Part shown: piece by piece, positions 13,929 through 53,477 of the stretch
How positions within the stretch are numbered: position 1 is the first letter of the stretch
Layout: every line of letters begins with the position of its first letter
Source of the DNA: Sphyrna mokarran
Lineage: Eukaryota
Reading direction: 5' to 3'
DNA length: 64,000 bases
Assembly (NCBI GenBank): GCA_024679065.1
Contig: JAGIQG010000009.1
Location: forward strand, 65,286,001-65,350,000
Position numbers and translations under genes: made by a program
The notes under the pieces: generated by a model
The model's input: only the letters and a program-made list of their open reading frames with translations
Told to the model about the DNA's origin: nothing
The model's database searches: none

Positions 13929-14990
13929 ATAGAACATAGAACACTACAGCACAAATAGGTCCTCTGGCCCACGAGTTGCGCCGATCACATCTATACCTAC
14001 CAAGCCACAGACCTATCTATAACCCCCTATCCCATTAGTTCCCATATACTCATCCAGAAATCTTTTAAAAGACCCCAGCGAGTTCGCCTCGACCACCACC
14101 GACGGCAGCCGATTCCATTCACTCACCACCCTCTGAGTGAAAAACTTTCCCCTAGCATCCCCTCTGTACTTGCTTCCCTGCACCTTAAATCTGTGCCCTC
14201 TCGTCGCAACCATTTCAGCCCTGGGAAATAGTCTCTGAGAGTCCACCCTACCTATTCCTCTCAACATCTTGTAAACCTCTATCAGGTCGCCTCTCAACCT
14301 TCGTCTCTCCAGGGAGAACAGTCCCAGCTCCTCAACCTGTCTTCATAAGGCATGCCTCCCAATCCAGGCAACATCCTTGTAAATCTCCTCTGCACCCTTT
14401 CAATAGCTTCCATATCCTTCCTATAGTGAGGCGACCAGAACTGCGCACAGTACTCCAAGTGGGGTCTGACAAGGGTCTTATAAAGCTGCATCATTACCTC
14501 CTGACTCCTAAACTTAATTCCTCGATTAATGAAGGCCAGTACACCATACGCCTTCTTGACCACTGTCTCCACCTGCGAGGCCGATTTAAGAGTCCTATGG
14601 ACCCGGACCTCAAGATCCTTCTGCTCTACAACACAGCTAAGACTCCTACCCTTGATATTGTACTCCTTCATCCCATTATTCTTGCCAAAATGGACCACTA
14701 CACATTTATCCGCGTTGAAGTCCATCTGCCACTTCTCCGCCCAGTCTTGCATCCTGTCTATGTCCCGCTGCAACTTTTGACATCCCTCCAGACCATCCAC
14801 AACACCACCGACCTTTGTATCATCGGCGAACTTAATAACCCATCCCTCCACTTCCTCATCCAGGTCATTTATGAAAATGACAAACAGCAAGGGTCCCAGA
14901 ACAGATCCCTGGGGCACTCCACTGGTGACCGACCTCCATGCAGAAAAAGACTCATCAACAACCACTTTCTGCCTTCTGCCAGCAAGCCAG
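13929..14990 (-). mobile_element. Young 5'-truncated CR1 LINE nested in an older + strand CR1 (about 13200-15690)
   Basis: ORFs 14294..14965 and 14013..14297 (GVPQGSVLGP, KFADD, RPHLEYC); (TTCTATG)n-type tail. Confidence 0.95.
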
Positions 14991-20346: not shown

Positions 20347-20694
20347 ACCTTATTGAAACATATAAGATGATTAGAGGTTTAGATAGGGTGGACAGTGATA
20401 GTCTTTTTTCTAGGATGGAGAAAGCTAGCACGAGGAGACATAGCTTTAAATTAAAGGGTGGTAGTTATAGGACTGATGTCAGAGGTAGGTTCTTTACCCA
20501 GAGGGTGGTAAGGGTATGGAATGCCCTGCCTGCTGCAGTTGTAGATGCGCCAAGTTTGGGGGCATTTAAGAGGTCAGTAGATAGGTTTATGGATAAAAAG
20601 GGAATGGTTTAGGTTAGAGGGTCATTGCTTTTTCTTAATTGGTCGGCACAACATCGAGGGCCGAAGGGCCTGTTCTGCGCTCTAATGTTCTATT
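20347..20694 (+). mobile_element. CR1 LINE 3' fragment (same subfamily as 38641-39386)
   Basis: ORF 20295..20612 (LIETYKMIRGLDRVD...FFTQRVV); ttcta-type tail. Confidence 0.93.
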
Positions 20695-21041: not shown

Positions 21042-21728
21042 AGATTACATCCATTGCAGAGCACTGGATAAATAATTAGGAATGGGAAGGTTGGTTACGC
21101 TTTACTTGTTCAATATGACAAAAGAGTCGCCAAAAAAAAAAACTAAATCCTGTGTCAAAGATATCAAAGACTGCTAGAAAATAAAATGTCTTGTAAATTT
21201 GGTGTTAACAAAAATCAAAATGTCTGAATGGAAGGATTGGAAGAACATCAGACAAGCAATCCCATCTGACATTTAAAAGCTACAATAATTAACTTTCAGT
21301 CATGTTCACATCAACATGTTTTAACCAGAATATGTATTGTAAAAGTCTGAATTATCAATTTTAAAAGACAATTATCCTTGCTATTGACTAACTAAAACAA
21401 AGCTATGTAACTAAAAGCTCTCGTTAAAAAGTCAGTTTACATTTGTGATTGAAAGGCTACCTTTGCAACAGATCAAATAATTCATATGCAGATTGGAACT
21501 GATGATGGCACGCAGGAAGTATATTGCTTCAAGAGGGCTGAAGAGCATTTCAGAATAAATGGAGACGACCAGCTATATCACTTGATCAACTTGTCAGTTC
21601 ACTGTGTGGTTAGTTAGTTAAAGTGTTAATCCTTTCCATTGAGTAATGGATATATAAACATCAAATTCAGTTTTCTGAATTTTTAAAGGCGCACATGCAT
21701 TCACTTTACACAAACTATACTAACTGAG

Positions 21729-22548
21729 GCAGTATGGCAATGCAATGGTTAAGGACTGTTGCCTCACAGCACCAAGGACCCGTGTTCAATTCTGGTCTCA
21801 AGTGACTTTGTGGAACAAAGAACAAAACAGCACAGGAAACAGGGCCTTCGGCCCTACAAGCCCACGCCGCCCATTTTAACACTCAGTGAGTGCCTCATTC
21901 CAGTCCTCCTCCTACTTACGACTTTTGTCTACATCTCAGACTCCACAATAAAGGGGTGCATATTAGAGAACTATACGTGCACCAGATCAAGGGAGATCCA
22001 ATTTAGGGACAATTTATTAATACCAATCAACCTAAAAGCACATTTTTGGGGTGTGGGAGGAAACCGGAGCACCCAGAGAAAACCCACGCAAGCATGGGGA
22101 GAATGTGCAAACTCCCACAGACACCAACCCAAAAGTCGGAGATCCAACGTTAGTCCCTGTAACTGCACAGCAAACAGTAATAGTCACTCAGCTGTCGTGT
22201 TGCCCATCAATCGGTCCAGTTCAAGTGTACACTAACGACATGAAGCACTAGTCAACTCTCGAAGCAACAACTAAGAGCAGCCCTTGCACAAACCACCACG
22301 TGTATGCCCCTTGCTGGCCAACAAGGCAAACTGAATCGCCTGCAGATGTAAAAAACAGAAGTCTGTATGTTCTCCCTGTGTTTGAGAGTGTTTCCTCCGG
22401 GTGCTCTGGTTTCCTCCCACAGTCTAAAGATGTGAAGGTTAGGTGGATTGGCCATGCTAAATTGCCTCTCTCATCAGGGGATTAGATGGGTAAGTACATA
22501 GGGTTGCAGGGATAGGGGACTTGATGGGTTGAATGGCCTTCTGTATTG
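21729..22548 (+). mobile_element. HE1/V-SINE-like tRNA SINE interrupted by an antisense insertion (21813-22356)
   Basis: tRNA-like head at 21729-21812; V-domain (ccgggtgctctggtttcctcccacagtc) resumes at about 22357. Confidence 0.8.
21813..22356 (-). mobile_element. 3'-end module of SINE-tailed CR1 (copy C)
   Basis: Colinear with 36580-37035, 53088-53477 and 25277-25740. Confidence 0.85.
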
Positions 22549-23360
22549 TTGTTCATTGTTCGTCCATTGTCATTGATGAGGACCAAACACCATTAGTTAT
22601 TTTGAGGTTCAGTGCGTCCAATTCGGGCACGCAATGTCCTGGCACATATTGGACAGGCTTGTGTAGACACTGTAGTTGTTGCGCTGGTGGCTCTGAACTT
22701 GTGCAACTCATGCTTAAGTTGTGCTTCAGCAATACACCTTGCTTCATAAGCTTGACAGCCTTTGTGGATGAGACAGCGCCAGGTAGGGCAGTTTTGTACC
22801 AGTGTTTCCCAGGTGGTTGTGTGTATGTCAAGCAACTTCAGGGAAGCCTCGAGTGTGTCTTTGAAATGTTTCTTCTGCCCTCCATGCAAGCGCCTACACT
22901 TGTCTGACATTTGTCAGACATGACCTGCCCGCTAGATCTGCGCTCTCATCAGCAACGTGTGGACTGATGGTAGACTTGTTCCAGATAGAACTTAGTGTCT
23001 AGTACTTCGTCTTGCCATTGATGCGTAATATTCTGCAAAGACAAGTCCTGTGGATATGATTGAGCTGTCTTGCATGCGTTCAATGCACAGTCCACATTTC
23101 ACATGCATACAGGAAGGCAGTGAGTACCGCGGCGCTGTAGACCTTCAGTTTTGATGCTGGTCTGATTCCTCGACATTCCCATACAGTGGAGCGCAGTCTA
23201 CCGAAAGCAGAACTTGCCTTTGCTATTCTGCAGTTAACTTCTGTGTCAATGGTCACTGCTTGGGAGAGGGTGCCACCAAGATAAGTGAACTGCAGTTTCT
23301 GCCCTTTGATTGTGATTATGGGTTTTGTGTACAATGCATGAGAAGCAGGCTGCTACATGA
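22548..23360 (-). mobile_element. RTE-clade LINE 3' fragment
   Basis: FTYLGGTLS...EVNCRIAKASSAFGRL and GGQKKHFKDTLEASLK peptides. Confidence 0.9.
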
Positions 23361-25276
23361 TTTCTACATTGTAGAGATTCTATGACTCCAAGGTAATAAC
23401 CAGTGGCATTTTACCATGTATACGAAACCTTCTATAAACAGCATAAGAATTTTAAGATATAGATTCTGTGCTCTCATGTATCTATTAATGATGCAATGCA
23501 ATACATTTGCCAAACAATGGCCATAAATCCTCTGCTGATGACAGATAATGGATCAGCTTCATAACCAAATGTTTCAATTTCCTGCTATGATTATCTGCTC
23601 AGGTAATTTGCAATTATAATTCCTTTTAATGTAATAAATCTGAATATTAAAATATAGTGCCACAACATTTGCTTCTACTATCCTGCAGTTTGCTACATCC
23701 ACCTCCAAATTATTTTTTTCCACGTGGCCTGTTCACTTGAATGAACAATCCCTTTTTTAAAAAAATAACAGCCTCACCTCATGATATCTTGAAGGAAATC
23801 ATTTGCAAGCAGCCCTGTGTGATACCTTCTAAGTAGCATACATAGTAGCACACGTACAAAATTGACTCAAAAAACAAATGCCTGTGGTTAATGTCATTTA
23901 ATCGGACTGAAAAGCATTTGATGGTGCCCAAGGAATTGAAGCACTGTCCAATTCTGAGCACTACACTTTAGTAAGGATATTAAAGTTTTACAGTGGATGG
24001 AGAGAAGATTTGCCACAATGGTAACAGCAATATAGGACTTTGGCTTCCGGGAGGAAGAAACTGGGATTATTCTTCTTGAAGTAGAGGTTGAGGTGATTAA
24101 ATAGAAGGCTCCAAAATTATGAAGGAATAGGATACAGAGAAAAACAATTTCCACTGACAGAAGGGCAAATAACCGGAGGGCATAGATTTAAGACAATTAT
24201 GGAAGAAAATTCAAAAATAAGCTTCAAAAGGGAACTGAATAGCTAAAAAGGAAAAATCTGTCGGGCCACTTCAAAAAAGCACGGATTTGGACCAATTGAA
24301 ACACTAGAATATAAACACTACATGATTCTATTCTGTGAATAAAATTTAATTCCATCCTCCAAAAGAAACAGATGTGAAAAACTCAAATGATATAAAACTG
24401 CTACAAGTAGGTAAGGCCTCAAAGAATGAAATTTGGAATGCAAACCTACAAATTACACATGTAAAAAATCTGGAAGTTGAGTAACATACTAATTTCCATG
24501 ATGAAGCATTGTTATTTGTCTTACTTTTGCACTGAAGTTCCCAATTAGTTTATACTGAACCCTGGACTAACTTAAGTTACAGAACAGTCTACCGCTGATG
24601 AAAGGCACCGTTGTTAGTTAATGGATAACTTTCTAGTGCTCTGCACTCCCAAGTAAATTTTCAATATCATTGTGTACTTTAAGTGGTAAATGCTTCTTTA
24701 TTTCAAATCACCAATTCATTAGTCGATCCTAGCTTTAAACACACTCCACTTGTCCTTGCAATAATTTTTTTTGTATTTTTTAACCATCTTAAATATTTTC
24801 TGCTAATTTGTTTGGCTAATCTATTGTTCAAATTGACATCTTTCATCAATTTAATCTGGGAAAGATCATTTTCTCACTAGAATTTGTTTTTTTCCAATCA
24901 AATATCAGCCCATTTGACTTGTCCTTTCCTTTCCCTGATTAAACTAAATCAAGTTACAAGGTGGTCAATTTTTTCCGCAGATGTTTCACCACTGTTAACG
25001 TGCCAATGTATGACCTTTTTCTGAAACAGCAGCACAATCATCCTGACAAAACAACAATTAACTTCATCATTGTTAACCTGTAAATTCATTAAGCAATTTG
25101 AGGCAAAAATACTGTGAATTGTAAATCATCATAAACTGCTAGACAACGTGTCTTGCTCTGCTGTGCTGCAAAAATGGCAGTTTAAACCTTGTGAATTTTA
25201 AGAAATAGTTACTTTGCATTCATAGCTAATTAAACTCACCAGCAAAGTTAGAGTTGGTAATTAAATTTTTTTTTTA

Positions 25277-26316
25277 AGAGATTAGAGCAACACAGCACGG
25301 GAAACAGGCCCTTCGGCCCAACGAGCCCGTGCCGCCGTCATAACTACATAGTAACAATTCCATTATCCTATTCTAATTTTAGGTTATTCCTAATATGGAA
25401 GAATCTCAATGTAGGGACAATTTGTCTCCCAATCAGCCTAAGAGCGAATTTTTGGGATGTGGGAGGAAACCGGAGCGCCCGGAGAAAACCCACGCAACCA
25501 CGGGGAGAACGCGCAAACTCCCGCAGACACCGGCCCAATTCCAAGTGTCTGCACAGCCACATCGATAGTCTCTGAGCTGTCATGGTGCCCTTCAGATGGT
25601 CCACATAAAGCACTCATTTACGACATGAAGTACCAGGCAACCCACGAATCAACATCCAAGAGCTGTCCTCGCACCACCTGCCGAATGCATGCTCAATGTT
25701 GGTCAAGTATGGACCGAATTACCTGTGGGAAAAAAAGCCATAGTTAAACAGTCCTACTATATCCCTCTATCTGCATACCGCTCATGTGGCTGTCCAAGAG
25801 ACCCTTAAACAGCCCCAGCGTGCCTGCTCCCACCACCTTACTCGGCAGTGCATTCCACACCCCCACTACCCTTTGTGTGAAAAACTGCCCTCTAATATTC
25901 GTCTTATACATAGCCCCCCTCACCCTAAGGCCATGACCCCTCGTCCTATCCATTTCTGAAGGTGGAAAAAGTTTACCACCATTTACTCTATCTATACCCC
26001 TTATAATCTTATACACCTCTATTAGATCCCCTCTAAGCCAACGTCTTTCAAGGGAAAACAACCCCAGTCTATTTAATCGTTCCTCATAAGACAGTCCTTC
26101 CATACCAGGCAGCATCCTGGTAAACCTCCTCTGCACTCTCTCCAAGGACTCCACATCCTTCCGATAGTACGGCGACCAGAACTGGACGCAGTATTCCAAG
26201 TGAGGCCTAACCAACGTTCTATACAATTGCAACATCAAACTCCTACTCTTGTATTCTATACCCTTTTCTATGAAAGCTAACATACTATACGCTTTCTTTA
26301 TCACCTTCTCCACCTG
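25277..26316 (-). mobile_element. CR1 LINE 3' fragment with SINE-derived 3' end (copy A)
   Basis: Open ORF2 C-terminus 25744..26313, followed by a 3'UTR containing a V-SINE body and tail. Confidence 0.93.
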
Positions 26317-29300
26317 TGAAGATGTAAATATCTTCTAAATGACAATATTTATGTTTCTGCAATGTCATTCAACTTCCCTGGCCAGACAGGAAATAACTAT
26401 TACTGCAGATTGCTGAGATTGAGATTGCTTCCGTTCAATATCCACTGATCACTACCCCACCCCAGCCAAAAGAAAAATCTAATCTTCCTTTCTTTATTTA
26501 TTTCTCTTTCTGTACTAAATTTGACTCATTAATCAACAAAAAATTTTCAAGATTGGGCAAAAAATATCAAAAGCCTCTCTCTTCCTTCGTTTAATTTGAC
26601 TTATGAAAATTAGGACAACGATGATATTTTACTTTGAAGAATCTATTGCTAATATATACCTCTCTAAACTACCCAAAATATTTTAATTTTTAAACTTTCT
26701 TGACTTTGTTCAAAATTACACTAGTCTCAGTATCCAGTTTAATTTAAATCAATTTTCTATCTCTAGTGCTGTATACATAATTAATAATCCTGCCTCAGCT
26801 ACAGACATGTTTCCATTACTATTGCTATCATTTTCCATCTGTAATCAAGGATTCAAGTTCTTCATATGTATTTCTTAGCACTTGTGTAATGCATACGTTG
26901 GTTTGGATACCTTTGGTTTGGCAATTTCTCTTTTTATTGCATTGCCTTTTTTTTTAAATTGATGCTTTTGAGTCGGCATGTCTCAGTGAAGATTGGTTGA
27001 AGACCCATGATGTTGCTCACACGTGTTGCAGGTCCCAGTAGATACTGCACTGCTGGATCAGACTCCTAACGATAGCAAGTTGCCACTCAAAAGCTATTAC
27101 CAGCGCCATTCCTTCACAGTAGAGATATAATAATGGCAACCAGCTGTGAAGGCTTCACCTGAGCTTCTGTTTTAAATGTATACATATGAATACACTTTGT
27201 ACAATATCAAATAGCACCAATAACAGAAACAGCCATTATTAGATCAAACTAATCTCATTCCCCATTCCACTCTGCTTCAACCAATGGGCAATTTAAGTTT
27301 TTTTTTAAAAACAATCATGATCTCTGTCCTTGGTGCCAATTCATGAACATTTACAGACCATGTTCAGTGCAAATGAGTTATCTGATCAAGTGTGCAGTAG
27401 AAAGGTCTCTATTTTGCCTTTTTTAGTGTAACGTATGTTGTAATAATATGGACACTGATTGGCTCACTGATTCTTGTTTGAGGATCATTCTCATATTAAC
27501 TTAATATTTTCACGAAATTTCCTCCACTAGTTACATCCAATGGACATTAATACTTTTAGTAAAAAAAGTAACCCATTATAAATGCACACTTTTCATATAA
27601 ACTACTACGCAACCAAACCAACTGCAATTACGTAGTTACTCAAAAATAATTTTAACACAAAGTCCAAACACTGGTCAACAAACTTTATTTTGCAGAATGC
27701 AATTCAGTAAAAGTTAATACCAACAGTGCAATACCACACGGTTTTTCAGTTCTGACACTGCCAAATTGAAAGCCAATAATCTCAAGGATGTCATCACAGA
27801 ATGAGTGTAAGATACTTTGACTGCAGGTCTCCTGATAGAAGCAGCTATTCACAAGATATAAAATCAAACAAATATAGTTGAAATTTTATCCCAAGTGCTT
27901 TGTAAGAAGTCACCTAAATGGAATAGATTCAGAAAAAAAAAATAGCTCAAGATTAGACAACCATGAGGCACAGTGGTCCATGAACAGCAGCAGAATAGCA
28001 TCTCACCAGCATCTAGAACCAAACTGTGCTGAGAAGAAACTGGCAGAGTTTGAGTTAAAATGCTATTATTTCAAAACTGAAACTAAAGTGCATCTTCAGC
28101 TCATATCCATAAAGATACAATTTCTAGTAAGTATGTCTATTATATTCAAATCATCTTTGCAGTACTATTGCAAAACCTTAAACAGGTCGGTTATCTGAAC
28201 AAGTACCAGATGACGATCAACAACTGTCATTTAAACCAGAATGAGTATTAAGGAAAGGGACAAAAAAAAAAATGAGTGTGGAGGAGGAACAATTGAGAGA
28301 TGACCAAAATTCTCAAAAATATTTGACTTACAGATAGTCATTTATTTTAACTTTAAAAAGTACACTGGCTTTAGGTAAAGGAATAGTTGGGAGAAAACCA
28401 AGTTCTTCAGTACAGAATTGCAAAATACACTTCCTAATACCATCTTCATTGTACCCACTCCCCATGCCCAAACTTCTCCCCTATAATCCATTTCTCACCT
28501 GAAGGCACCAACTTTTGTTTTAGTTACATTTGTGTATTCTTCTAGTGATTTGTTGACTTTTGAATCAACATTTACAAGGTACACATTCCAGCAGAAGCTG
28601 ATGAAAGTTTATCAGCAATAGTATCCCTAGCTTATTTTCTTTCCTCTTTCAACATTCACAGACGGAGGCCAAGTGTAGCATTTTGAGAGTCCTAACTGCT
28701 GTCTGGATGAGGTCAGCTAAATAAGAAGTCTCACAACACCAGATCAGCTAACCCATTATATATTGAGAATAAAAATCAGTACGAAATGGTTTGCATGGAA
28801 AGGGATGAAACAGATTTGTAAAAATCAAGAACTCACCCAAAAGCATTTAAACATTTTCTGATTTTATTCGAATGACCAATTAAGTAACCTAAATGTCACA
28901 ACTGCCATATGATGAGAATGAAGTAATTCACTACTTGTTTTGGTTTTTCAACAAAATACACTAAAAACATATGATAAACATTCTACATTTACCTGTTGTA
29001 ATTCATTGCTTATTTACTGAGCAAAGGAGGTATCTGGAACCATTCTTTTAAACATATGTGCATTACACATGACCAAGAGGACACAGGCACAGATACACGC
29101 GTCCTCATCCCACAACAGATAAAACCAGTTTTTATAAATATTGAAACTAATGCCCTAACCTTTCCCTAGTACAGCTGTTCTCACTTCACAAGAGCATGTA
29201 CTTGTAACAGGATTGCAACAAAACAGCCTCCATTATTCAATTAGAAATAGGTCAAATATACTTCATACTTCAGACTTTTCAGTAACTTCAAGATGCAGCC

Positions 29301-30029
29301 AAAAATAACTTATGAAAAAGTGGCTTTGCTTTTCCCAAAAGTCAGAAAGAGATTTAGTACATTTACTTTTTACAATTGATCTCAGAGTTCTCTCTCAACG
29401 CAAGTACCCTAATAACTATAGTGCAGTTGAGAGCAATAATGCTCAAACAGTCTATTTTATTTGGAATTCCTTATTCACTCAATTTTACTATACGAACCGA
29501 TGTTTGCATAGTAATAAGAAGAAAAACATCCTAAATGCCTCATAAATATTATCTTGAAATTTAAGATTGTGTCCCCTTGTAGATTCATTTGCCAGAGGAA
29601 ATATCCTCCCCATGCTTCCAATTTCAACATCACAAATGACCACACTTGAAGTAGTGTGTAAAGTTCTAATGCTATGGTAGAGGAGTACAAAAACGGTTTA
29701 CAAGGACAATATCAAAACTGTGAGGTTATAGCCATCAGCAAAGGAATAACAGACTGTTGTCTCTTGAAAAGTCAAGACTGGGAGGTGACCTAATAGAGGC
29801 CTTTAAAATTCTGACCAAATTTAAGAAAGCAAACAGACAGTATTCCTACCTTGGAGAAAAAAAACTACCTGTAATCAATATTGAATATTCAAGAAATCAA
29901 ATAGGGAATTCAAAGAAAACTTCTTCACCAGGAAGTGGTGATAATGTGAAACTCAATACAGAGCAGTCAGGGCAAGTGGCAGGGATGCATTTGAAATGCT
30001 AGATAAGCTTATGCGGCAGAACAGAAATA

Positions 30030-30578
30030 CAGGCAGTCCTCAACTTTACGATATTCAAGGTACAATGAACAGCACTTAAGAAAATTAAAAGTTCACATCA
30101 TGTTTCAAATTTGTCAGTTTTACTTTACAATGCCAACTTTTACATTTTTGTAAACATGAATCATAAATTTGAAACATTTTGAATGAACTTGGGCAAGTCG
30201 TGAAATCTCCCACAGAAACACCAAGCCCCCTGCATCCTTCATTCAGCAGGCAGGTCGCTATCCTGCCTGGTTACAACCAGAAACAGGAGAACTGTTGTTG
30301 AAAACTGGGAAGTGAGGCTGCAACCTGGTGGCAAAAATCCTGCCTTGCGCCAGTGGTTGATCTTCCATGATAACAATATGATTTTCATGCCTGCAGTCTA
30401 AAGCGTTTTGCTCAGCCAGCTACAGAGAACTCCTCGTGACCCACTGGCAGAGGTCTGAATGCATGAGAATGGCCTTCTAAGAGAAAATTAAGTCGCAATC
30501 TTTTAACATTCCAACATCTCAACATTCATGACACGGTTTCCGAGAACAAACTGGGTTGTAGATTCCAAGGACTGCCTT
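30030..30578. mobile_element. Tc1/mariner (pogo/Tigger-like) MITE inserted in a decayed CR1 3' fragment (about 29640-30650)
   Basis: TA|CAGGCAGTCCTC...GGACTGCCTT|TA termini; CR1-like sequence continues across the insertion. Confidence 0.75.
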
Positions 30579-33500
30579 TAGAAGATTATGATGGATAGAT
30601 TTAGATGAAGAACAGGATGAGGCTCAAATGGAGTACTGAATGACGATACAGATCAAGCTGTTATAATTACAAGTTGCCATGATTTTCAACTACCTTCCGC
30701 TTATTTGATGAAACATACTTCAGAAGTATGGATTTTTATACATTTTTCCTTTTAATATGAATTTTAGGCACTGTACTTTATAAATGTTTGCATGAGCTCC
30801 TGTTAAACAAAGAGTTAGCTTGATTATTGCAATGAAGAGTTGTTTGTATTAATTAAATCTGGAATGTCACATGATGATTAGGGATAAAATATTGTATCAT
30901 ATAATAAATCATAGATTAACTCTAGAGTTATCTGCATTAATTAGATTTGGGATGTCACATGATTAGGCATAAAATGTTGTAGGAAAATAGATATTTATAG
31001 AATCAAAGAACAAGTTCAAATTTAAGAGTGATTAAATGGAAATGAGAACAGTTCAAAATAATCGAGTCTGTGAAATGTAGTTTATCAAAAAGATTGGGAA
31101 AATGGTTCAAAATCACTAGGCTGTTTGTGTTTTTGATTGGAAACACAGTTACAATAATACAAAGATGTTACCAAAGGAAGTTTAGGACTCTAACTCATCC
31201 ACATGTCTTAGATTTCATTAATTATAGTTATAGCACTATAGTGCAGCTCACTATGTATCAATGGCCCACTGATGAACCTGTGAATGATGTATTGATGGTC
31301 TACAGATGCAACCATGAATACTGTATTGATAATATTAATGTATATCAATATTAATGTTATGAATGGCACAGAGCAATTTTTTTTTTAAAACCAGGCCGCT
31401 GTTGACATTGGAACTAAAATTGGAAAAAGTAAAATTTAACATGCGTCAAACTACATCGCTCATATACAAGTTGAACAAAGCTGTTGTTGACAGTCAATAC
31501 CAGTTGTCCCAAGAAACGATCTCATCCATCTGTCCAAAAACAACATTCACTATCCACTTGAAAAAAAAAATCACACATTGTTAACTGGATCATTAAGAGT
31601 TATACCACACCGATCAATTTGAGATTTGGTACATGTCCGAATACGCACCAGCAGATAACGGTTATAGTGCCCTTTGATTCTAACTATTTTACAGAAAAGC
31701 AGTATTATATCATGTATCCATCATTAACTGACACTCAAGGGAATGTATATTATGGCCGTATAAAAATATACTGCAGCAAATCAATGAGTTATATATCAGG
31801 TATAACATCTTCTGATGGATCTTGAATTTACAATGGGAACTTACTCCCCTTCCAGATATGTACAAGTAGTGGACTATATATTTGTTCTCTGGACACTGAC
31901 TTCTTCATATCCATTATGTGCTATTGCGAATGCACAAAACACTTTCATTTTCACTTGTACTACAATTAACGAAGGAGAAAGTGGTTAGGTTGTACTGAGG
32001 ATTATTTGTTCAGTTCACTTGCACTTAACCCAAATAAATCAAAATAAACAGATGACTGGGAAGTACAACGTACTGAACAGCTCTGGTCACCCACCCGCAG
32101 CCTCCAAAATGTCACCCAAGCTGAAATGCTATATGGGAGAGATGCAGGAGGCTGTCACCAAGCTATTAATCTGATACCCAATTGTTAGGGTCAGTTATGA
32201 AAGAACACAAGTTCAAGGTGAGATGCAGGGGGTTTAGGGGCAAAGTGAGGAAAAACATATTACCTAGAGGATGGTGAGGTGCATTCCTAAAGCATTGTGT
32301 CAAAGGCGAAAGAGTTGAAGGACAGCATTTCCTCCTTTTAACGGCAGGAAATCAGGCAAGTTAAGTCCAGCCACTTTCAGAAGTCGGGGGGAAGATAGTA
32401 GGTCTGTAATCTGGATAACAGAACTGGACATTGAGGTAATGGGTTGGTTGGGGGAAGGAAGGGCACAGCACTTACGTTTCCAGGAATTAGAAACGTATCT
32501 AATTCTTCTAGCTTTTTTTGGATAACTATTGCTATAAGGTAGTCAGAACCATCTAATTTATGATTTAAATCAGATCATCCAATTGAAAGGTACTATAGAT
32601 GTACCTACACCACAGGAACTCCTGCAGGTCAAGGAGGAAGCACAACACCAACTTCTCAAGGACAATTAGGAATGGGCAATAAATGCTGGCCAAGCCCTCA
32701 ACAACCACATCCCACAAATGAATAAAATAATCTTCCATAATCAAAAATCATGAACATGAACCCATAATCCAACAAATCAAGATCAGCTGATGAATAATTA
32801 ATGAAAGTTAAACTTCTTTGGCTGAAACAGCCCTTTGATCAAGTTGCAAACCAACCAAACCAATAGTATTCATTAGACTGTTCAAATCTACCTTCCGATC
32901 AGTAAAAGGTACTCATAACTCTACACTAGAAACCCAGGTTCAAATATTACTTGACCACAAAGTTCAGATTACAAATAATTATAATTCTGAGGTGTCATTG
33001 TCTGATTAAAATAATTCAACCAAGGGTCCATTTAATTGCCCAGCCAAACGTCAAATACCTCCTGAGGCAGTAAACATCTTAAAACCAGCCAAATAAATTA
33101 TTTTTCTGCAGCTTCAATGCTTAAAAGCATAACATTCCAGACCACTCAATTTTCTTCCAATTCTATGAAAATTGAATATTGTTTTTTGAGTGTATATTTC
33201 TCTGTGCATATTCGTAGTATAGTATAATTTTCATCAATATAACACTTTTAAATCACTAAATTTACCTAAGTAAAACTTTTTTTTATTCTTTCTCTGGATG
33301 CTGGCTAAATCAGTATTTGTTATCCATCCATCACTGTCTCAAGAGGTAGTGTTGAGCCACTTCTTTGAATAACTACACCCAGAATGCTGCTTGGAAGCCA
33401 AGTGCCAGGATTTTGACACAGCACAGTGAAGGAACAGTGGTATAATTCCAAGTCAGGATAGTGTATGGGCTTGGAGTGAACTTTCAGGCAATAGCATTTC

Positions 33501-34323
33501 TACACACGTGTCGACTGTCTTTGTCCTTCTATATGGTAGAGGTTACAGATTTGAACAGTGCTGTTTGAAGGAGCCTTGACAAATTTCTGCAACGTATCTT
33601 GTACATGGTACACAATGCTGACACAGTGTGCTGGAGGGAGTGAGTGTGAATCCAGCAGACTGCTATGTCCTGGATGTGTTGAGCTTCTCTAATACTTTTG
33701 ACATGCATCCAGGCAAATGGGTAATAGAGTCCATCACATTCCAGACCGTACTCTGTAGATGATGGTCAGATTCTGGGGAGTCAGGAGGTGAGTTATGGTT
33801 CACTGAATTCTCAGCCCTTGACCTGCTTTTGTAATAACAGTATTTATATGATTGGTCCATTTCAGTTTCTGCTCAATGGAAATCCCCAGGATGTGGCAGA
33901 AGTAGTGATGGCAGTGCCATTGAACAGCATGGGCAATGATTAAATTCCCTCTTGTTGGAGCTGGCACATGTGGCACAAATGGTACTTTCCACTCACCCAG
34001 GCCAAGTCTGAATGCTGATTAGCACATTTTGCTGCATAAGGATGCATACAACTTTGGCATCTGTGGAATCACGAACAGCATAAATAATTGAGCAATCATC
34101 TATAGGCATCCACATTTCTGAACTTATAATGGAAGGAAGTTCATTGATGAAGCAGCTGAAGATTGTTGGGTCTCAGGATCTCCTGCAGCAATATCATGGA
34201 ACTGAGATAATTGACCTCCAACAATCACAATCATCTCTCTTTATGCTAGGCATAAGCCAGCAAAGAGATTTTCCCCAATTCCCACTGAAGCTTCAGTTTT
34301 ACTCAGACTCCTTGATGAGCCAT

Positions 34324-37035
34324 GTCAGGTGGTTAAGGTTGTAGTAGGGGAATATGTGGCTAACAGTGACCACAATTCTGTCTACTTGAGGATACAGATG
34401 GAAAAGGATGCTTGTTGCCCTAGGGGGAGGGTGCTGAATTGGGGGAAAGCTAACTACAATTGATTAGGGAGGAACTTATGGAAACTGATTGGGAACGGTT
34501 GTTCGAGGATAAGTCCACACGAGCATGTGGGATTCTTTCAAGGGAATACTGAAAATGTTGCAAGATAGATATGTGCCGGCTAAGAGGAAGGATGGGAAAG
34601 GTAGGATTACTAGGGATATTGAGGACTTGGGTAGGAAGAAAAGAGGTGTACATTAGGTCAAAGCAGCTGGGAACAGAGAGAGCATTGGAGGAATATAGAG
34701 AGAGTAGGAGGGAACTCAAACAGGGAGTTAGAAGGGCAAAAAGAGGGCATGAAATGGTTTTGGCAGATAGGATTAAGGAAAATCCTAAGGCATTTTACTC
34801 CTACGTTAGGAATAAAGAGGTGGTTAGAGGAAAACAAAATCAGACCTCTTAGGAACAGAGGGGGGGAAGTGTGCTTACAGCCCGAGGGAATGGGAGAGAT
34901 CATGAATGAATACAGCGTCAGTGTTCACGAAGGAGAGGGGCTTGTTGACCAGTCCTGTCTCTGAAGGAGCTGTAGACCGGTTGAGGGAAATATCCAGACC
35001 AAGGGAGGAAGTATTAGAGCTTCTAGATAGCATTAAAACTGATAAATTTCTGGGGCCTGATGGCATTTATCCCAGGCTGCTTAGGGAGGTGCGAAGTGGA
35101 TTTACTGGGCCTCTGACACAAATTTTTGTCTCTTCTTTGGACACAGGTGAGGCTCTAGAGGACTGGAGAATAGTTAATGTTGTACCGTTATTTAAAAAGG
35201 GTAGTAGGGATAACTCTGGAAATTATAGGCCAGTGAGTTTGACATCAGTGGTAGGGAAGCTGTTGGAGGGGATTCTTAGACATAGGATGTATAGGCACTT
35301 AGAGCGTTGCGATCTGGTTAGAGATACACAGCATGGCTTTGTTAAGGGGAGATCGTGACTTACGAACCTAGTAGAATTTTTTGAGGAAGTGACAAAAACA
35401 GTCGACAAAGGGCAAGCCGTTGATGTCGTCTATACGGATTTTAGTAAGGCGTTTGACAAAGTCCCTCATGGGAGGTTAGTTGAAAAGGTCAGGGCTAATG
35501 GGATACAAGGACAGGTAGCTAGATGGATAAGTAACTGGCTTGGTAATAGGTGACAGAGAGCAATAGTGCAAGGGTGTTTTTCTAGCTGGAGAGCAGTCAC
35601 TAGTGGTGTGCCGCAGGGCTTGGTACTGGGATCTCTTCTATTTGTAACATATATAAATGACTTGGAAGAGGGAGTAAGTGGAGTGATCAGCAAGTTTGCA
35701 GATGATACAAAGATGGCTGGACTTGTGGGTAGTGAGGAGCATTGTCAGGCCATACACCAGGACATAGTTAGGCTGGTAACTTGGGCAGATAGATGGCAGA
35801 TGGAATTCAATCCTGATAAAGGCAAGGTGATGCATTTCGGGAGAAAGAACGTAGGAGGGAGGTATATGATAAAGGGTAGACCAATCAAGAGTACAGAAAC
35901 GCAGCGGGATCTGGGGGTGCAGGTGCACAAGTCTCTGAAGGTGACACAGCAGGTGGAGAAGGCTGTGAAGAAAGCATATAGTATGTTAGCCTTTATAGGA
36001 AGGGGTATAGAGTACAAGAGCTGGCCTTTAATGTTGCAGTTGTACAAAACGTTGGTTAGACCTCATTTGGAATACTGCGTCCAGTTCTGGTCGCCTTACT
36101 ACCGGAAAGACATGGAGACTCTGGAGAGAGTGCAGAGGAGATTTACCATGATGCTGCCTGGTATGGAAGGTCTGAGTTACAAGGAGAGGTTAGGCAAATT
36201 GGGGCTGCTTTCCTTAGAAAGATGTGGACTTAGAGGAGATCTAATAGAGGTGTACAAGATTGTGAGGGGTACAGATAGAGTAAACTGGGTTAAGCTTTTT
36301 CCTAGGATGGACTCAAATAGCACGAGGGTCACGGGCTTAGGGTGAAGGGGGTAAGATATAATTTGGATGCTAGAGGGAGTTTTTTCCACAGAGGGTGGTG
36401 GGGCTATGGAATGTGTGCCAAGTAAAGTGGTGGAAGTAGGCACTCTGGAGTTATTTAAGAGATAGTTAAACGGGCACATGAACAGAATGGGAATGGAGAG
36501 ATATAGGAAATTGATGTAAAATAGGGATCATGAGCCTTGAGAGTTCCCTGGGAAGTGTGTAAATTGTCGATGATATTGATGTATTTGTTTTATCCTACAG
36601 GTGCTTTGGTCCGCCTTGTTGTCTAACAAAGGGCGTACACGCGATGGGTCATGAGAGGGCTGCTCTTGGATTTTGAGAGTATCCTAGTACTTTACGTCGT
36701 TAGTGTATGTTTGACCTGGACCATTTGATGGGCAACACGACAGCTCAATGACTATTGCTGTGCTATGCAGATACTTGGATTTACGCCTGTGTCTGTGGGA
36801 GTTTGCGCGTTCTCCCTGTGCTTACGTGGGATTTCTCCGGGTACTCCGGTTTCCTACCACATCCCAAAGATGTGCTCTTAGGTTGACTGGCAGAACAAAT
36901 TCTCCCTAAATCGTCTCACATAGATCTATGAACATAAATAGGGATCATGGGTAGAAGTGGGAACATCAAGGTAGCAGCGCGGGCTCATTGGGGTGAAGGT
37001 CCTGTTTCCTGTGCTGTTTTGTTCTTTGTTTTTTG
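34324..37035 (+). mobile_element. About 2.7-kb CR1 LINE (end of endonuclease through RT), disabled, with SINE-derived 3' end (copy B)
   Basis: SDHN motif; ORFs 34906..35358 and 35566..36345 (YRPVSLTS, QHGF, GVPQG, KFADD); in-frame stops; splits an older - strand LINE. Confidence 0.95.
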
Positions 37036-38640: not shown

Positions 38641-39386
38641 GGAATAATAAATGTGTAGAGTATAGGGCTAATGGTAGGATTCTTAATAGTGTTGATGAAC
38701 AGAGGGATCTTGGTGTATTTGTGCATAGATCCCTGAAAGTAGGCAGTCAAGTCGATAAGGTTGTTAAGAAGGCATATGGAGTCTTAGCTTTTATTGGTAG
38801 GGGGATTGAATTTCGGAGCCGCAACGTCATGTTGCAACTGTACAAAACTCTAGTGCGGCCGCACTTGGAGTATTGTGTGCAGTTCTGGTCCCCACATTAT
38901 AAGAAAGATGTGGAGGCATTGGAGAGGGTACAGAGGAGGTTTACCAGGATGTTGCCTGGTATGGAGGGCAGGTCTTATGAAGAGAGGCTGAGGGATTTGA
39001 GGTTGTTTTCGTTAGAAAGGAGGCGGCTAAGAGGGGACCTAATCGAAACATATAAGATGATTAGAGGTTTAGATAGGGTGGACAGTGATAGCCTTTTTCC
39101 TAGGATGGAGAAAGCTAGCACGAGGGGACACAGCTTTAAATTAAGGGGTGATAGTTATAGGACGGATATCAGAGGTAGGTTCTTTACCCAAAGGGTGGTT
39201 CGGGAGTGGAATGCCCTGCCTGCAGCAGTTGTAGATGCGCCAAGTTTGGTGGCGTTTAAGAGGTTAGTTGATAAGTATATGGAAGAGAGGGGAATGGTTT
39301 AGTTTAGAGGGGCATTGCTTTTTATATTGGTCGGCGCAACATCGAGGGCCGAAGGGCCTGTTCTGTGCTGTAATGTTCTATGTTCT
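38641..39386 (+). mobile_element. Young CR1 LINE 3' fragment with an open ORF2 C-terminus
   Basis: ORF 38721..39302; tgttctatgttct tail. Confidence 0.95.
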
Positions 39387-39516: not shown

Positions 39517-39678
39517 CAGTTAAAGAGTTGAGTTAAGAGTTGCAGTTAAAGAGTTGAGTTAAGAGTTGCAGTTAAAGAGTTGAGTTAAGAGTTGCAGTTA
39601 AAGAGTTGAGTTAAGAGTTGCAGTTAAAGAGTTGAGTTAAGAGTTGCAGTTAAAGAGTTGAGTTAAGAGTTGCAGTTA
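39517..39678. repeat. Perfect 26-bp minisatellite, 6.2 copies (CAGTTAAAGAGTTGAGTTAAGAGTTG)
   Basis: Read directly; identical units, no spacers. Confidence 0.97.
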
Positions 39679-40119
39679 TTTGAGTTTGGTACCTACAATT
39701 TAAACTTGTTCCAACAGAATTTGAGTCAACTCATGTCCTTCTGTTTTGTAATATTAAACTAAGTATCTGGAAAGTAGTTTAAGTTTTTTAAATTCATTCA
39801 TGGGCTGGGGTCTTTGCTGGCTGGGCCAATATTTATTGCCCATCCCTGAGGGCATTAAGAGTCAAGCACATTGCTGTGGGACAAGTCACATGTAGGCCAG
39901 AATAGGTAAGGACAGCAGATTTCTTTTCTTAAACGACATCATTGAACCAGTTTTTATGACAGTGGTTCTGTGGTCATTAGACTTTTAATTCCATATTTTT
40001 ATTGAATTCAAATTTCATTATTTGCCATGGTAGGATTTGAAGCCAGATCCCCAGTGCATTACCCTGGATCTTTGGAAACTAATCCAGTGACAATACCAAC
40101 ACACCAATGTCTCCTCCCC

Positions 40120-43030: not shown

Positions 43031-44084
43031 TATATTGTACCTATTTTAATCTATACATACTCATGTTGACAGTTGGCTTTACCCAAAAGAGGAAGTTGAG
43101 TAAACTTTAATCAAACTTTATCTGCTAACATTCCTGTTAAGTACCTTGGAACATTTCTACTGTGTTACAGATGTAACATAAATGCAAATTGGCACTATGT
43201 CCTTCTGCTGTAATTTGCAACAATTCAGAACAGGTTTGTTAAGAGACTGTATGTATCTGGCACAACTGTATTTTTTAAAAAATCTAATGCACAGAGTTTC
43301 AGAAAAATAAACTTGGTGTAAACTCTTCTAACAATACATTCCAACTTCTGCATAGCACATCCAAACCAATCACTAGTATAAAGGCCTTTTATACCAGATG
43401 TTTCTTTTAAAACTAGCCATTTATATTCTGCACACATTGAAACTGGCACTTTTTACAACTCATACGTGAAATAAAAACAGAAAATGCTGGAGGAACTCTA
43501 AGTCTGACAACATCTATGGACAGAGAATACAGTGAACATTTCAAGTCAAAGTCACCCAGATTCAATGTTGGTTCTATGCTCTCTCCACAGATGCTGTCAG
43601 ATCTGCTGAGCTTCTCCAGCATTTTCTATTTTGTTTCAGATTCCAGCATCTGCAGTATTTTGCCATTATCAAGATGTGAAATGTTCATGTTGACAATGAA
43701 TGGTTTTGAAGTCTATCATTAAATCACAAACCCAGTGCAGATATATCATGAATCACATATAACTGTTTTTTTTTTATCAGTTTTAATAATATACTTGAAC
43801 CCCAATCCTAGGGGAACGTTATATACAAACTGTGAAATTCTTTATTTCCTACAGGAGACATTAGTTCTCAGCATTAATTTCATGTTAATTATGGAAGATT
43901 TTTTTTGCTTGAATACATTAAGATCCGGCACTGACTGATCCAAGTATTTAGTTTAGAAACTTTGAGGTCTACAAAACATCTGGCTGACATTCAGTCTAAG
44001 TGTCAAAGATAATTTACTAACTCAGTGCATCACCCCTTCTTTTCTAATTAAAATTAGATTGGATGGCAAAAGTTAAAAAATTTA

Positions 44085-44345
44085 TAAGTTGCAAGTAGGC
44101 TTACATTAACATTGCAATGAAGTTATTGTGAAATTCCCCTAGTCACCACACTCGGGCTCCTGTTTAGGTCAATGCAATTAACCAACATGTCTTTCAGGCT
44201 GTGGGAGGAAACCAGAGCACTCAGGAGGAAACCGATGCAGAAACGTGAAGAAGCTGCAGACTCCACAGAGACAGTGACCCAAGCTAGGACTCGAATCCGG
44301 GTCTCCAGCACTACAAGGTAGCGGTGCTAACTACTGTGCCACAAA
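44085..44345 (-). mobile_element. V-SINE-like tRNA SINE (tail also seen at 1-65 on +)
   Basis: tRNA head, V-domain and gttaatgtaagcctacttg tail. Confidence 0.8.
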
Positions 44346-46735: not shown

Positions 46736-47461
46736 TAGGAGTATAATATCAAAGGTAGGAGTCTTGGCAGTGTTGAGGAGCAGAAGGATCTTGCGATGTG
46801 GGTCCATAGGACTCTTAAATCGGCCCCACAGGTGGAGGATGTGGTCAAGAAGGCATATGGTGTACTGAGCTTCGTTAATCAAGGGATTGAGTTTAGGAGT
46901 CGGGAGGTAATGCTGCAACTTTATAAGACCCTTGTCAGACACCACTTGGATACTGTGTGCAGTTCTGGTCACCTCATTACAGGAAGGATGTGGAAGCTAT
47001 TGACAGGGTGCAGGGGAGATTTACAAAGATGTTGCCTGGATTGGGAGGTATGCCTAATAAAGATAGGTTGAGGGAGCTAGGTCTCTTTTCCCTGGAGAAA
47101 AGGAGGTTGACAGGCAACCTGATAGAGGTTTAAAAGATGTTACGAGGTATAGATAGGGTGGATTCTCAGAGACTATTTCCCAGGGCTGAAATGGTCACTA
47201 CGAGAGGACACAGGTTTAAGGGGCTGGGCAGCAAGTACAGAGAAGATGTCAGAGGTAAGTTTTTCATTCAGAGGATGGTGAGTGAATGGAATCAGCTACT
47301 GTCGGTGGTGGTGGAGGCAAACTCGCTGGGGTCTTTTAAAAGACTTCTCGATGAGTGCATGGGATTAAATGGGATTGGGAGTTACAGATAGTTCTATGGC
47401 CTAGTAGGTATAGGTATGATCTTGTGGGCCAAAGGGCCTGTTTGTGCTGTAGCGTTCTATG
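46736..47461 (+). mobile_element. CR1 3' fragment (same subfamily as 13929-14990) inserted into a - strand V-SINE (about 46560-47587)
   Basis: ORFs 46796..47071 and 47137..47391; SINE halves on both flanks. Confidence 0.9.
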
Positions 47462-52170: not shown

Positions 52171-52544
52171 TCCTACCCTTTTCTCTCTGTTGTGTTCATT
52201 GTTTATTTTCCTCTTTCATGTAAGGCTCAGAGATCTTTTCTTGCATCAGATAGCTATAGAAACGTAAGCTGTTTTTGTGGAATTCAGAGTTGCAAAGTTG
52301 TGGCATTCACATTTTCCATTTCAGGATAATTGTATTCATTGGAAGATGTTTGAATGTAGTCATGAAAAACAGGTGTAGTGAGGTTTTGTTTTAAATTGGT
52401 TTTCAAGACAGCACAGTGGTTAGCACTGCTGTCCCATAGCTCCAAGGACCTAGGTTCAATTTTCAGATCTTTTTTCAACTCCTTCAGGCAATCAAAATTA
52501 GTTCAGCAGGTCACTTTGACCGTAATTATATTGCAGATTAGTTA

Positions 52545-52830
52545 TCATAGAATCCTTTCAGTGCAGAAAGAAGCCATTTGGCCCATCAAGTCTGCATCGA
52601 CCACAATCCCAACCATGCACATTTTCCCTGCTAATCCCCTGATACTAGAGTCAATTTAGCATGGTCAACCAACTTAATCCACACATCTTTGGACTGTGGG
52701 AGGAAACTGGAGCACCCAGAGGAAACCCACACAGGCACAGGAAAAAGTGCAAGCTCCATGCAAACAGTGACCGGAGGCCGGAATTGAAGCTGGGTGTCTG
52801 GCGCTGTGAACCAGCAATGCTACCATGCTG
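52545..52830 (-). mobile_element. HE1/V-SINE-like tRNA SINE
   Basis: tRNA head, V-domain and CR1-like tail (gattctatga). Confidence 0.8.
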
Positions 52831-53087
52831 ACTAAAAGATATTCTTATAGTTTATACTATTTCTATTTACTAAAAGCACTATGGAAGAGAAACCCTTTTC
52901 ATATGTCAATACACCATGGTCCAATCGAGTGATAAAGGTTGAAACTCTTATCCAACTACGTTCTTTATTTCAACCATGCTTCTTGGGGAAATACAAAGTA
53001 GAGAAGAGTAGCTATATATTTTCAATCAGCTGTGCTTGCAGGATAAATTGTATGGAAAGTAGGATCAAAATGAGAACATTACATATT

Positions 53088-53477
53088 CCTGGATTTTTTT
53101 GAGAGTATTCTAGTGCTTCACATTGTTAGTGTACGCTTGACCTGGACCATTTGATGGGCAACACGACAGCTCAGTGATTATTGCTGTGCTGTGCAGATAC
53201 ATGGATTTGGGCCTGTGTCTGTGGGAGTTTGCGCATTCTCCCCGTGCTTGCGTGGGTTTTCTCCGGGTGCTCCGGTTTCCTCCCACATCCCAAAGATGTG
53301 CTCTTAGGCTAATTGGCAAAACAAATTCTCCCTAAATTGTCTCAAATTTGGTCTTTAATCCATAGATCTATAATCGTAGACAGGGATCATGGGTAAAGGT
53401 GGGAACATCGGGGTGGCAGCACGGGCTCGTTGGTCTGAAGGGCCTGTTTCCCGTGCTGTTTTGTTCTTTGTTCTTTG
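53088..53477 (+). mobile_element. 3'-end module of SINE-tailed CR1 (copy D)
   Basis: Closely colinear with 36665-37035, including the (TTCTTTG)n tail. Confidence 0.88.

Follow-up and report, generated by a model that had tools for sequence, protein, structure and literature searches.

A CR1 LINE family of Sphyrna mokarran with a V-SINE-derived head and V-domain in its 3' untranslated region

Repeat fragments at the ends of LINEs are reportedly described in a paper on BovB. In the available part of PMC13343379, canonical vertebrate CR1 LINEs display an esterase-like ORF1, an ORF2 with endonuclease and reverse transcriptase, frequent 5' truncation, a stem-loop tail and, in some copies, repeated 5' subunits, and the elements reported here are alike in these respects. 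According to the same part of that paper, Zenon is the only one of the CR1-group elements to have a poly-A tail. The HE1 V-SINE and HER1 LINE of sharks and rays (PMC3747384, excerpted text) resemble the present case in the V-SINE core, which bears Pol III boxes, and in a CR1-type tail common to SINE and LINE. The nearest published precedent is MER6/MER6A (PMC6887750, excerpted text), where a V-SINE is found inside another transposon and has spread with its carrier. What SINE central domains do is described as unknown in the available sections of PMC4824008 and PMC11481361; the roles proposed in the sections available of PMC4758252 and PMC4824008 are transcription, RNA stability, tail exchange and host benefit.

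Copies in the window and anatomy of the module

The window is the 64,000-nucleotide stretch of S. mokarran DNA analysed here (assembly GCA_024679065.1, contig JAGIQG010000009.1, forward-strand positions 65,286,001 to 65,350,000), and positions given below are those of the window. A first-pass annotation had reported four copies of a module, A to D, with the ORF2 of A and B running into the module and the other local CR1s being short-tailed. All four copies were found at the places it gave, and both observations are seen in the window. The features are as follows.

25266..26322, minus strand: copy A, youngest subfamily, 97.9% identical to its own consensus; ORF2 stop at 25746-25744, acceptor-like AG at 25724-25723, head from 25590, V-domain from 25530, then tail and A run
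34315..37035, plus strand: copy B, whole
34315..36519, plus strand: copy B CR1 ORF2, 5'-truncated and decayed, stop at 36517-36519
36520..36600, plus strand: copy B spacer, 81 nt, with a pyrimidine tract and CAG at its end, putatively splice-acceptor-like
36601..36729, plus strand: copy B linker, predicted long hairpin (fold z -1.8 to -3.9)
36730..36788, plus strand: copy B head of SINE origin, with its A box degraded and its B box lost by deletion
36789..36908, plus strand: copy B V-domain and post-V stretch; the 73-nt core is 36789-36861, and homology to free V-SINEs stops at the end of the stretch
36909..36973, plus strand: copy B middle stretch, fast-changing, 57-62% identical between subfamilies
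36974..37035, plus strand: copy B CR1-type tail, predicted stem-loop, then a short terminal repeat
21813..22359, minus strand: copy C, of the oldest subfamily, its truncation lying in the spacer; from about 22205 a whole head that includes a B-box remnant
53088..53477, plus strand: copy D, B subfamily, truncated within the linker, 94.7% identical to the B consensus
52520..52835, minus strand: free V-SINE with HE1-type tail (comparison, outside the LINE)
38641..39386, plus strand: short-tail CR1 of another young family (comparison)

Copies A and B share one order, in which CR1 ORF2 is followed by a spacer, a 130-135-nt linker, the SINE-like head, the V-domain and a CR1-type tail. Across 34315-36505 copy B is 76% identical at the DNA level to a full-length A-type element. 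The spacer is 21 nt long in A, 81 nt in B and 168 nt in the C consensus. The short CR1s at 38641-39386, 13931-14990, 46737-47461 and 20347-20693 pass from ORF2 directly into the tail and have no module; the 3' UTR is about 470-700 nt in chimeric CR1s, as against about 50-90 nt in other CR1 families of the same genome. Copy C sits in the middle of a free V-SINE (plus strand) and cuts it in two, as expected of an independent insertion. Rfam gave no match over 21700-26000, the region of copies A and C (three chance-level hits, E 0.54-6.1). Elsewhere in the window are a tandem array with a 12/13-bp unit (39520-39680) and a 170-bp inverted repeat (184-353 vs 870-1039, 99.4% identity).

The captured domain, which we take to be the published V-domain of V-SINEs, is 85-90% identical in its core to the free SINEs of this genome, presumably HE1. 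These free V-SINEs form three clusters with one common core and with tails of what we take to be the HE1 or the L2 type. The C consensus is colinear with the free V-SINE core from the first base of the SINE, and homology ends about 200 nt in. The C head and the free head share 53/77 positions (z 8.0, 0/200 shuffles) and the V regions 82/97; the A head compared by itself shows no significant similarity to the free head (z 0.2). The first-pass annotation had described a module of about 450 bp holding an entire SINE. The order of linker, head, V-domain and tail stands, and the whole-SINE extent does not; SINE homology covers only the head, the V-domain and a short post-V stretch. The middle stretch between V and tail gave no significant match to SINE or CR1 ends, nor to ORF2. 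The point at which free V-SINEs swap tails is also the point where homology ends. A cluster with the L2-type tail (window 44050-44340, minus strand, and 37 further copies) has the head and V core of the others and is an example of tail exchange.

Scored with Pol III box motifs that we presume to be the standard ones, the free heads show 0 mismatches in the A box and 1 in the B box. The chimeras show 2 in the A box, and across them the B box has 3-5. In the C family 3 of 11 B-box positions are mismatched, in agreement with the B-box-like remnant annotated earlier in copy C; the A and B subfamilies have lost about 20 nt that include the B box. The box motifs are the sole support for calling the head tRNA-related, since Rfam gave no hit for one free head and ARAGORN called no gene in 20 loci of free SINEs or in 10 of C.

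The chimera as a genome-wide LINE family

A query with the linker of copy B retrieved 29 other loci (the set being the top 30 among 40 that were scored out of 6,564 candidates). All 29 run continuously from within ORF2 into the module at 86-90% identity to B, and 27 reach the end of the tail. When head and V alone served as query, the match at 29/29 other loci went on upstream beyond the head, reaching ORF2 in 18, and 0/29 begin at the head. The check proposed with the first-pass annotation, whether the flanks upstream of the linker/head junction are CR1 ORF2, thus gave that result for 29/29 loci with the linker query and 18/29 with the head and V query. The junction of ORF2 and module is neither rare nor variable genome-wide, which rules out a chance nested insertion, as the annotation had argued. 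The module is not supported as an independent SINE: its Pol III boxes are not intact and its copies do not start at the head.

The unit instead moves as a single LINE family, with fixed 3' ends and scattered 5' ends. Among 30 C hits selected by the tail, 21 have 5' ends upstream of the head and 9 inside; those nearest to the head lie at -11, -9, +14 and +19, and there is no pile-up at the head. The 3' terminus shows a 7-nt repeat in 20/30 B and 14/30 C copies, and in A an A run in 36/50 and the repeat in 3/50. No standard poly(A) signal was found 3' of V in the A consensus. Flanks of 20 full-length copies gave matches of 0-6 nt, mean 2.95 vs 2.29 for mismatched flanks, and no clear target-site duplication.

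The module is present on 111/112 ORF2 ends of the three chimeric clusters. It is also found on 6/158 other ORF2 ends; five of these are short A/B copies that the clustering missed, and one is a C copy that lies next to an old CR1, having inserted there. A 600-kb sample taken at preset positions contained 9 linker copies and 125 V-domain hits, and 6/65 of its CR1 ORF2 ends were chimeric. Extrapolation from these 600 kb to the 2.77-Gb genome gives about 41,600 copies (95% interval 19,000-79,000). Three age strata are seen, with median identities of top-ranked copies to their own consensus of 98.6% for A, 94.0-94.5% for B and 90.2% for C. In reads of two other organisms 0.27 and 0.21 of full-element words are shared, and in four more 0.07-0.14; this word sharing is mute on the junction.

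At full length an A element measures about 4.6 kb; its 5' start is sharp, its ORF1 esterase-like, and its ORF2 of the endonuclease-reverse transcriptase kind. Among 20 copies chosen by their 5' UTR, all 20 finish in the chimera tail, the module is whole in 18, and both frames are open in 5 (ORF1 310-314 codons, ORF2 989 codons). The 989-codon frame matches PF03372, PF14529 and PF00078, and ORF1 resembles PF13472 (E 4e-7) and PF17182 (E 4e-6), both just under the Pfam cut-off. Judged by its reading frames, the chimeric CR1 is an autonomous and recently active LINE, the youngest stratum having full-length copies with both ORFs open.

The 5' ends of A-type elements show further features. In 5/30 a unit of about 182 bp occurs in additional tandem copies, like LINE promoter monomers. 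A 5' flank of about 20 nt is common to three full-length A copies, which suggests that they inserted at a single site within another repeat or that an alternative 5' end exists. The 5' UTR displays a TATA-like motif. It also has two strong donor-like GT sites, and an intron of about 40-50 nt, lying directly before ORF1, may start at the second.

A pyrimidine tract followed by CAG|G is found at the linker start at 36588-36601 (plus), 25733-25722 (minus) and 22348-22339 (minus) and is kept in all three subfamilies; in subfamily A a branch-point-like motif overlaps the ORF2 stop. This is a putative splice-acceptor-like site. Spliced retrocopies were sought by two gapped-motif searches, one for each GT site of the A 5' UTR joined to the linker start, and neither found an exact match (0 and 0). 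Loci chosen by the 5' UTR continue into ORF1 in 30/30 cases, with a query that disfavours spliced forms, and copies that start near the acceptor have unrelated DNA upstream. A candidate splice between the 5' UTR and the start of the linker, as these motifs suggest, thus finds no support among retrocopies.

Constraint on the V core and its predicted fold

The 73-nt V core is identical at 69/73 positions between A and B, 68/73 between A and C and 72/73 between B and C (95, 93 and 99%). The corresponding values at ORF2 four-fold sites are 88/146 (60%), 77/129 (60%) and 98/138 (71%), and the Fisher p for the difference is 2e-8 to 1e-7 in this comparison of three lineages. ORF2 first and second codon positions, at 87-93% between subfamilies, are below the V core. 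In the order A-B, A-C, B-C, identity is 89, 84 and 97% for the 5' head, 98, 94 and 92% for the tail and 70, 74 and 90% for the linker. An identity so far above that of four-fold sites points to purifying selection on the V core as part of the LINE RNA. Nine positions are fixed in A, B and C and differ from all three free clusters, which argues against conversion by free SINEs.

The head and the 5' part of V have the same multi-branched predicted fold in A, B and C, with one arm shortened by the B-box deletion (predicted fold z for head and V -1.7 to -3.2). When the C structure is laid on six other rows, 261/292 cells are paired vs 95-152 when it is slid. Two-sided changes are found at 4/52 pairs and represent essentially one split, between chimera and free SINE. 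Retention of the fold by paired changes is suggestive only, since the structure is taken from one row (the C consensus) and the lineages are few.

Origin of the module and comparison with known systems

In an ORF2 DNA tree (1,440 columns, 35 rows, at most 4 per cluster, midpoint root) the chimeric copies form one clade at 100/100, placed among short-tail families and with a short-tail sister at 98/98. A protein tree recovers the chimeric clade at 100/99 and does not support the sister relation; in it some sister rows mixed neighbouring elements and the outgroup rows are not one clade, so it supports the single clade only. Both trees are built from elements of this genome only. The clade agrees with the earlier proposal that the chimera persisted across subfamilies, here three, from a single origin. 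The direction proposed then, SINE into LINE, is likewise upheld: the other sampled CR1 lineages are without the module, and the SINE head is present from its first base.

The ownership of the tail is a separate matter. The C tail matches that of the DNA-tree sister family at 54/65 positions, those of other short CR1s at 48-52/61-65 and those of free SINEs at 41-43/62-64, and the B tail behaves like the C tail. The A tail has its best match in another short-tail family (45/65), with 42/64 for the DNA-tree sister and 39-41/62-63 for free SINEs. In a census of 358 distinct V-domain copies (of 465 hits, 107 having been removed as duplicates or as near an edge), the 123 chimera-type tails all stand behind a chimera head, 122 of them with the linker, and 0/197 free-headed V-SINEs carry a chimera-type or short-CR1 tail. 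A search for a remnant of a first LINE tail 3' of the stop codon gave nothing significant; the best z, 3.5, came from one of three scorings among many tests, and a free-SINE control was equally non-significant, which makes this a weak test. No junction or duplication marks the borders of the insert. The tail affinity, the 0/197 free SINEs and the missing first-tail remnant favour a capture into the LINE's own UTR. The earlier view that a whole SINE was adopted by read-through is therefore not favoured, nor is the view that the LINE now uses the SINE's tail.

The preferred reading, to which we give a probability of roughly two in three, is a single capture of V-SINE head and V-domain into the 3' UTR of a CR1, in front of the tail of that CR1, and their likely retention by selection as a folded RNA element aiding the copying of the LINE RNA. 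The capture would have occurred by insertion or template switch and would have brought about 650-700 nt, consisting of SINE core and flanking sequence. A Pol II transcript from the LINE 5' UTR would then carry the module, so that the SINE promoter would be dispensable. In other CR1s the ORF2 protein recognizes the terminal stem-loop and primes there; here it would still bind the terminal CR1 stem-loop and prime reverse transcription. The fold of head and V may act after transcription, in RNA stability or particle assembly, and not as a promoter. That the active LINE has in this way domesticated the core of its parasite, with head and V as a cis-acting RNA structure that raises retrotransposition without Pol III transcription, is a possibility to which we give slightly less than even odds.

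The main alternative is read-through. Transcription of a CR1 may have passed the tail of the element and gone on into flanking DNA and into a V-SINE downstream, which bore a tail of the same lineage, the SINE tail then becoming the priming end. A SINE mobilised by this CR1 would bear a like tail, so tail likeness cannot separate the two models, and an extinct SINE subfamily with this tail would leave much the same picture. Captured flanking DNA might also have the intron-end-like sequence seen at the linker start, and free V-SINEs here do swap tails where homology ends, HE1-type and L2-type tails being found on one core. This read-through is nevertheless unlikely: the tail is found on none of the 197 free-headed V-SINEs, the 5' ends of tail-selected C hits do not cluster at the head and the spacer holds no consistent first-tail remnant. 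That the module is ancestral in CR1 and gave V-SINEs their body is barely credible, even though LINE parts became SINE bodies in the RTE and Vingi clades (PMC5786205, available text). The module is absent from every other CR1 lineage sampled, it holds the SINE 5' head from the first base with its Pol III boxes degraded, and V-SINEs span vertebrates to cnidarians (PMC4824008, available text) and are thus far older than the chimeric clade.

The SINE piece may also be a neutral passenger, its conservation coming from recombination between subfamilies or from a locally low mutation rate. LINE subfamilies exchange segments, and with three lineages compared an exchange of V and tail between them could mimic constraint. 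We consider this quite improbable, because stretches of conserved and of unalignable sequence alternate within a single module, the spacer became shorter, from 168 to 21 nt, with V unchanged, and V exceeds even the first and second codon positions of ORF2.

On the reading of capture and retention, the constraint on the captured core, which was absent from the first-pass annotation, is the strongest point; the main worth of the case is a measured constraint on a promoterless V-domain in an active autonomous element, more than the chimera itself. Conservation of V in an RNA that lacks Pol III boxes and needs no tail exchange speaks against roles in transcription and tail exchange and favours a post-transcriptional one. 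If the LINE has indeed domesticated the core, the highly conserved domains of SINEs serve the RNA and not the promoter or the host, and a natural autonomous element is available for assaying SINE domain function. The carrier encodes its own proteins, so that the role of V could be examined by comparing elements that have V and elements that lack it in a standard retrotransposition assay. In genomes of this kind, repeat annotation may be scoring tens of thousands of LINE ends as SINEs.

No report of a CR1 holding a V-SINE was found in the literature searched, the comparison being with article texts. None is described in the available portions of PMC4824008, PMC3747384, PMC4758252, PMC13343379, PMC11481361, PMC5499810, PMC6887750 and PMC5786205. 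RTE-1_DAn and the elements related to it (PMC5786205) are also LINEs with a tRNA-like sequence; in the available text they belong to a different clade, appear only as a source of stray hits and have no V-domain stated. The chimera differs from canonical CR1s in that its 3' UTR holds a SINE head and V-domain and its youngest subfamily mostly ends in an A run. It differs from HE1/HER1 in that there the SINE took the LINE's tail, whereas in the chimera the head and body of the SINE are found within the LINE. MER6, as described in the available text of PMC6887750, is a long-inactive non-autonomous DNA transposon; the carrier reported here is autonomous and by its sequence recently active, moves via RNA, and shows a constraint on V that is measured against its own neutral sites.
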